Below the pieces are notes generated by a model. That model was not told the DNA's origin. It did not search any database and was given only the letters and a program-made list of their open reading frames with translations. The translations under genes and the position numbers were made by a program. Below are positions 14,281-14,400 of a stretch of DNA of 64,000 bases, piece after piece. Source of the stretch: Candidatus Freyarchaeum deiterrae (GTDB taxonomy: Archaea > Asgardarchaeota > Jordiarchaeia > Jordiarchaeales > Jordiarchaeaceae); contig CP147778.1 in the NCBI GenBank assembly GCA_037305845.1, positions 3,232,001 to 3,296,000 of the forward strand. The letters run 5' to 3'. Each line of letters opens with the position of its first letter. The first letter of the stretch is position 1.

Positions 14281-14400
14281 CAGTGTCGCTTCATCGCCAA
14301 CACAAAAACTGGGAGAGGGGATAATACACATGGGGGAGGAGGGCGTTTTTTTTTGGGAGGAGGGGGAAGATACAATACCTCAAGTGTTGGCTCAGCACTG
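14281..14400 (-). ncRNA. Candidate ~120-nt kink-turn small RNA or leader with CCUCCUCCC motifs
   Basis: Termini pair (CAGUG/CACUG; GCCAACAC/GUGUUGGC). CUGA and GAU-GA form a standard K-turn. The loop has two CCUCCUCCC and one CCCCUCUCCC. BRE/TATA lies ~25 nt upstream. Confidence 0.7.

Follow-up and report, generated by a model that had tools for sequence, protein, structure and literature searches.

A small RNA gene closed by a K-turn

In the window (the whole 64,000-nucleotide stretch of Candidatus Freyarchaeum deiterrae DNA that was analysed), re-reading of the sequence placed a small RNA gene of ~125 nt on the minus strand at about 14400-14276, the position and strand given in a preliminary description of this DNA. 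The window comes from a genome that is a single contig of 3,576,204 bases (G000), in which this copy, paralog A, occupies C1:3246276-3246400. The features of the locus are as follows, in window coordinates:

14425..14438, minus strand: BRE and TATA box of the RNA gene (from sequence)
14276..14400, minus strand: small RNA gene, paralog A (ends estimated from promoter spacing and the U-run)
14384..14400, minus strand: 5' clasp arm, consisting of NC stem, tandem GA (14393-14392) and C stem (covariation, position table)
14400-14394, minus strand: NC-stem strand CAGUGCU (from sequence)
14391-14384, minus strand: 5' strand of the C stem, GCCAACAC (from sequence)
14383-14304, minus strand: loop, 80 nt (from sequence)
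14355..14366, minus strand: C-rich word 1, CCCCCUCCUCCC (from sequence)
14332..14346, minus strand: core word, ACGCCCUCCUCCCCC, the site of bulge-helix-bulge (BHB)-type introns in homologs; the window copy is intron-free
14311..14320, minus strand: C-rich word 3, CCCCUCUCCC (from sequence)
14281..14303, minus strand: 3' clasp arm, consisting of C stem, GAU bulge (14295-14293), tandem GA and NC stem (covariation, position table)
14303-14296, minus strand: 3' strand of the C stem, GUGUUGGC (from sequence)
14292-14291, minus strand: second GA of the K-turn, followed by AGC at 14290-14288
14276..14279, minus strand: U-run, likely an archaeal terminator (from sequence)
13923..14198, minus strand: 91-aa gene with a predicted MmoB/DmpM-like fold, a neighbour only

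The loop is thus somewhat shorter than the ~85 nt first given for it. At each of the 21 loci examined a TATA-like box precedes the first G.A pair by 32-43 nt, and pyrimidine or U runs lie 3' of the clasp in most homologs. The folding energy of the window RNA is not unusual (z -1.4), as is expected when the loop is mostly open.

The two ends of the RNA are held in a clasp that has the layout of a Kt-7-like K-turn (C helix, 3-nt bulge, tandem G.A/A.G, NC helix) at all 25 loci of the family described below. In a 16-sequence alignment from seven families, 94.5% of the clasp cells pair and 8 of the 11 clasp pairs change on both sides; none of 500 shuffles matched this pairing and covariation, and pairing falls to 22-53% when the register is slid. 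The bulge is GAU, AAU or GGU and the tandem G.A is invariant, and the GGC-GAU-GA-AGC and GCU-GA-GCC strands closely resemble those of Kt-7. The canonical K-turn of the preliminary description stands, as a standard Kt-7-type motif whose stems covary and which, together with an open C-rich loop, is present at every one of the 25 loci. The genome carries two L7Ae-family genes.

Unlike the K-turns of box C/D, H/ACA and messenger RNAs, this one joins both ends of a stand-alone RNA and has its loop on the C-helix side. Box C/D motifs pair RUGAUGA with CUGA and have a U.U pair after the tandem G.A (position 3b.3n); here that pair is A-U, G-C, C-G, G-U, A.A, A.C, A.G or G.A and in none of the 25 loci U.U, and since it varies freely and is never U.U the motif is not box C/D. 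The earlier statement that this is no normal C/D guide was correct, and only its wording of C-like and D-like boxes was loose. A permuted or atypical C/D or H/ACA modification guide would make sense of the CUGA and GAUGA words at the K-turn of the window copy and of an ACA 3 nt before its estimated end, but is very improbable, because the CUGA (also CCGA, CAGA, CGGA, UAGA and UUGA) and the ACA are not conserved, there is no second box pair, a short, variable stretch 5' of the GA takes the place of a 10-12-nt guide complementary to rRNA or tRNA before a D or D' box, and the conserved words are not followed by or placed beside a D box. An H/ACA guide would be a hairpin with a bipartite pocket and an apical K-turn; here the K-turn is basal, and a pocket with a lower stem is lacking. 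A SECIS-like element was rejected, the K-turn halves being in opposite strand order.

Range and neighbours of the RNA family

The same genome carries a second copy, paralog B, at C1:1068939-1069066 (minus strand), and when it was scanned for K-turn-like clasps, 63 were found of which only these two paralogs enclose a C-rich loop. The covariance-model score of paralog A is 126.9 bits, its sequence being itself part of the model. Homologs are present in 10 of the 10 other genomes of the same order (Jordarchaeia), and covariance-model and pattern searches found members in families f13 (3 of 3 genomes), f8 (1 of 1), f15 (3 of 4) and f20 (2 of 3), as well as one divergent member in f6 (1 of 1), for a family total of 25 loci in 21 of 23 genomes and seven Asgard families, at one or two copies per genome. 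To judge by the labels of neighbouring proteins, f8 and f15 belong to Baldrarchaeia and f6 to Asgardarchaeum; f13 is probably Atabeyarchaeia. By sequence comparison, then, the RNA is common to at least four Asgard classes, namely Jordarchaeia, Baldrarchaeia, Asgardarchaeia and probably Atabeyarchaeia.

The core-plus-clasp pattern gave no match in other families among 268 genomes, and its reversed control was also zero; an exact match is absent from 255 other genomes, a number that includes the carriers G001 and G005 (genus-mates with an intron-bearing copy), G021 and the divergent G014, all of which fall outside the exact pattern. Weak covariance-model matches in other Asgard families had no clasp on inspection, and the large covariance-model searches scored 22-103 candidates per genome and missed true members, so that "not found" in them is not equivalent to absent. 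Archaea beyond Asgard were covered by one strict pattern, which misses Baldrarchaeia-type members too, and the viral contigs searched gave no true match. Rfam cmscan, a check proposed at the outset, found nothing significant in the window region or six homologous loci and assigned no family (the best match of the window RNA, to ar14, RF02344, scored 18.3 bits with E 1.6, where the cut-off is 58.8), and a literature search covering few subscription papers found none that describes this RNA family; both results agree with the preliminary view that no archaeal family of this architecture had been described. From these comparisons the element is almost certainly a real transcribed noncoding RNA family, and to judge by its sequence it is a variant of the C-rich seed RNAs that forms an Asgard family absent from the catalogues.

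A DNA-level element (a repeat, a MITE or a plus-strand G-quadruplex) would account for ends that resemble imperfect inverted repeats and for the G-runs on the plus strand. It is scarcely credible: there are one or two copies per genome, the two in G000 being too few for a MITE or repeat, and the promoter, the G.A tandem, the G-U pairs and the BHB register (below) fit only the C-rich strand read as RNA.

The preliminary description proposed that the RNA is a partner or cis leader of the 91-aa gene, whose start lies 83 nt 3' of the RNA on the same strand. A cis-acting leader, or a protein partner of the kind found in CcsR/CcaF1, would be in keeping with that spacing and with the linkage of the two in four genomes, but is largely refuted and quite improbable when the whole family is considered. 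Of the 25 loci, 4 have the gene beside the RNA, all of them paralog A copies from four genomes in a single genus; the other 21 loci are without it and have other downstream genes. The gene also seems to own a conserved TATA-like site. Among 61 genomes searched it occurs only in four of that genus, with 7 database proteins. Its predicted model (pLDDT 84) matches MmoB/DmpM monooxygenase effectors rather than DUF1127 (against 3dhh_E, Z 9.3, rmsd 2.7 and 86 aligned; second match Z 8.8); the protein has no Pfam match, and an Atlas search with it returned only matches below 0.9.

The genes 3' of the RNA differ by family and are often convergent: a TrmB-HTH coiled-coil gene in Jordarchaeia, and GluRS, CDC48-like or ASCH genes, in convergent orientation, outside them. 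A geranylgeranyl-reductase-like gene is often near the RNA, and 5' of it in five families lies the gene of a protein that is predicted to be membrane-bound and whose C-terminal zinc ribbon has an SNP motif between the cysteine pairs:

L282:774-1322, plus strand: zinc-ribbon membrane gene
L280:1764-2348, minus strand: zinc-ribbon membrane gene
L290:689-1237, plus strand: zinc-ribbon membrane gene
L226:1714-2325, minus strand: zinc-ribbon membrane gene
L032:4248-4937, minus strand: zinc-ribbon membrane gene

This gene has a weak, unlinked match in G000 near C1:279200-279630 and is missing beside both RNA copies in the window genus, which suggests ancestral synteny rather than partnership. As far as gene order can tell, the RNA is independent of its downstream genes.

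Two other loci in the window deserve mention in their own right. Positions 15913-17142 (minus strand) hold an intact-looking TnpB (Cas12f1-like) gene, and the ORF at 8181-9332 (minus strand) begins with ~130 residues that by eye resemble what is left of a TnpB N terminus; they are fused to a short-chain dehydrogenase similar to the short-chain dehydrogenase at 9733-10500.

Intron-like insertions in the core

In six genomes and one metagenome contig the core of the RNA is interrupted by an insertion of 29-30 nt, at either of two sites that lie 3 nt from each other. In G001, G003, G004 and G005 it is paralog B that carries the insertion, which is 29 nt long and splits the core after GCCCUCC; G002 and the metagenome contig L096 have a different 29-nt insertion 3 nt earlier; and G021 (f13) has a 30-nt insertion at the same site as G001, in the only copy found in this single-contig genome (C1:163240-163363), whereas the copy in its syntenic relative G031 is uninterrupted. 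Every insertion is made up of a single bulge base, a 9-10-bp stem-loop, a stretch of four exon-pairing bases and two further bulge bases. Exon pairing joins AGGG to CCCU in some insertions and GCGG to ACGC, with an A.G among the pairs, in others, so that the central helix has 4 of 4 pairs at the later site (G001, G003, G004, G005 and G021) and 3 of 4 pairs plus the A.G at the earlier one (G002 and L096); 8 to 9 of 9 pairs form in the inner, intronic helix, where the sequences of the stems differ and their pairing is kept. The fraction of shuffled inserts with this geometry was no higher than 3.5e-5 for the six insertions tested, and excision of each of the seven insertions gives the exact core of the intron-less orthologs.

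In sequence terms the insertions are in exact bulge-helix-bulge register, and they resemble the archaeal BHB introns of tRNA and rRNA in their 4-bp central helix, two 3-nt bulges and intronic stem. The outer exonic helix of the strict hBHBh' form is absent, the exon flanks being C-rich on both sides, and the motif is of the relaxed HBh' type only; relaxed motifs are found in non-canonical tRNA introns (PMC4090602). The host differs from the usual ones in being neither tRNA, rRNA, SRP RNA nor mRNA. We found no paper on BHB introns within such a small RNA, and the nearest case is a BHB-processed permuted SRP RNA (PMC4731332). Two EndA-family genes are present in G000, 92-95% of the tRNAs in these genomes are intron-bearing (PMC11291895), and a search of G000 for the source of the introns gave no significant match. 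From this geometry we consider it very likely that the insertions are spliced. The BHB geometry and the exact restoration of the core together argue indirectly but strongly that the element is transcribed on the minus strand and that the exact core matters. Separately, the 16S gene of G000 appears to have two short insertions, at about C1:1806460-1806495 and about 1805165-1805230, that are probably BHB introns as well, one of them close to the 3' end (helix 45 loop region).

The C-rich loop and its possible partners

Six of the seven families preserve the core CGCCCUCCUCCC, and it is usually joined by more CCUCC or UCUCCC words in a loop of variable length; mature RNAs have two to six CCUCC words, with one in the divergent Asgardarchaeum copy. 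The CCCCUCCUCCC part of word 1 is invariant in Jordarchaeia and variable in other families, and word 3 is present in both paralogs of the genus and abuts the core in Baldrarchaeia and f13. Linker and poly-C lengths shift by 1-5 nt, and such changes, single-base ones among them, leave no conserved reading frame, so a coding reading was discarded. With the clasp enforced, the core is predicted to be mostly unpaired (0.91 in the window RNA, 0.56-0.98 in eight members), in accord with the earlier proposal that the C-rich words are displayed in single-stranded form.

C-rich elements of other kinds were also seen. Two f20 genomes, which carry the K-turn RNA elsewhere, have a second conserved tandem C-rich element with two CCCUCCUCC words and no K-turn (L051:1501-1530 and L052:1501-1529); that in L051 has GGCC on both sides and lies 3' of a guaA-like gene, and that in L052 ends at the contig edge. 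At L304:1501-1566 (G155) two C-rich words lie in a short GCCAU/AUGGC stem without a K-turn, possibly an analog in another Asgard family.

The word CCUCCUCCC, of which the window RNA has two copies, is described as an anti-Shine-Dalgarno (anti-SD) loop motif in cuckoo RNAs (PMC4615179, PMC8034643). The alphaproteobacterial cuckoo/CcsR/ar14 RNAs (RF02344) are like the Asgard RNA in having this word repeated and single-stranded and in having paralogous copies. They differ in that they are made of 2-4 adjacent hairpins with the word in each loop, whereas the window RNA has one large open loop, closed by the K-turn, and no flanking hairpins; they are often beside a DUF1127 gene (the CIN1 subgroup), a neighbour that the Asgard RNA lacks; and the latter has an archaeal host and, in some members, introns. 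With both the multi-hairpin architecture and the DUF1127 link missing, identity with cuckoo RNAs was rejected, and the likeness is probably convergence. RsaE/RoxS and LhrC, bacterial C-rich hairpin-loop sRNAs that mask ribosome-binding sites, similarly present C-rich seeds in unpaired form, through which they can pair with G-rich SD sites; they are without K-turn or splicing, and the Rfam scans gave no sequence relationship to them.

Do the C-rich words favour SD sites in the host? SD use is evident in G000, where GAGGT is enriched 9.2-fold and GGAGG 6.6-fold before starts, and 35% of start-upstream regions, against 11% of internal controls, can pair with the core at -8 kcal/mol or better. Shuffles of the same composition did as well in start-region preference in 2 of 60 cases for word 1 and 4 of 60 for the core, and word 3 was no better than its shuffles (20 of 41). 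In these calculations the C-rich words pair preferentially with regions upstream of start codons, the kind of target first proposed for the anti-SD motifs. This preference largely follows from composition, a leaning towards SD regions being general among words rich in C and U, and no specific target emerged. The words also differ from the 16S tail (CACCUCC), which creates a mismatch at the U of GGAGGUG, and SD pairing offers no reason for the conservation of CG in the core. A single conserved long target was rejected, since the core complement is not shared among genomes: the 11-nt complement occurs in G317 only at the RNA's own locus, in G031 at one other place, and in G000 never at an SD position. 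Any pairing must consequently use short seeds.

The near-invariance of a 12-nt core that has no full-length complement in the genome would suit recognition by a protein, and the RNA might be a decoy or scaffold for proteins that bind C-rich strands (KH or OB/S1), for example binders of the CCUCC 3' tail of 16S such as aDim2, with the K-turn and L7Ae only stabilising it. In a passage of PMC12127562, work is cited in which KH proteins bind C-rich strands and an archaeal Dim2-like KH protein is complexed with a 16S 3' end fragment. We nevertheless judge a decoy unlikely, as genes of this kind show no linkage to the RNA across families (the ASCH-domain gene adjoins it in one family only) and as the order of the letters is near-optimal for pairing with start regions.

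A ribosome assembly chaperone like the eukaryotic snoRNAs U3/U14/snR30, pairing transiently with G-rich 16S sequence (the 5' strand of h18 and the 3' strand of h44), would explain the single-copy, class-spanning conservation and the gain of introns, both features of stable housekeeping RNAs. Duplexes of 9-11 bp are possible with GGGGAGGGC (h18) and GAGGGGGGAGA (h44), and wherever the h18 segment is assembled in a carrier genome, its sequence is the same. The same h18 sequence, however, occurs in family f3, where no member was found; the h44 segment varies among carriers, and by inspection the RNAs do not consistently follow it; and the best 16S duplex is no better than those of shuffled loops (6/60 to 38/60 in six RNAs). 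We consider this chaperone role rather unlikely.

The pairing evidence favours an L7Ae-clamped RNA that pairs with SD sequences over either the protein decoy or the 30S chaperone, and we regard such an RNA as the best explanation, plausible on sequence grounds though short of probable. It would be a stand-alone, trans-acting small RNP present in several Asgard classes. L7Ae would bind the K-turn and clamp both ends, stabilising the RNA and holding its loop open, and in intron-bearing copies tRNA splicing endonuclease and ligase would rebuild the core. The CCUCC words could then pair through short seeds with the GGAGG-type SD sites of many mRNAs, and by competing with the 16S tail the RNA would act as a broad damper or sponge of SD-led translation, without being dedicated to a single gene.

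Against such a regulatory role stands the near-invariance of the RNA across classes, a trait met more often in housekeeping RNAs than in regulatory sRNAs. A housekeeping RNP that is ancestral to several classes, matured by EndA and directed at the translation machinery, whether in the role of a trans anti-SD adaptor or sponge or in that of a snoRNA-like 30S assembly factor, is a possibility that we raise tentatively and with some doubt.

Asgard archaea are the closest prokaryotic relatives of eukaryotes, and little seems to be described of their small RNAs. An RNA of one or two copies per genome with a near-invariant core in at least four classes suggests a basic function. Its introns would bring tRNA-type splicing to a further class of RNA and would mark the core as its working part, a prediction that is directly testable. 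The expected splice junction is defined at single-base precision (in G021, GCCCUCC joined to UCCCC), and PMC11291895 describes metatranscriptomes of the source site. Should the tRNA splicing endonuclease indeed mature this RNP, as it does tRNA and rRNA, the activity of the RNP could be controlled at the splicing step.
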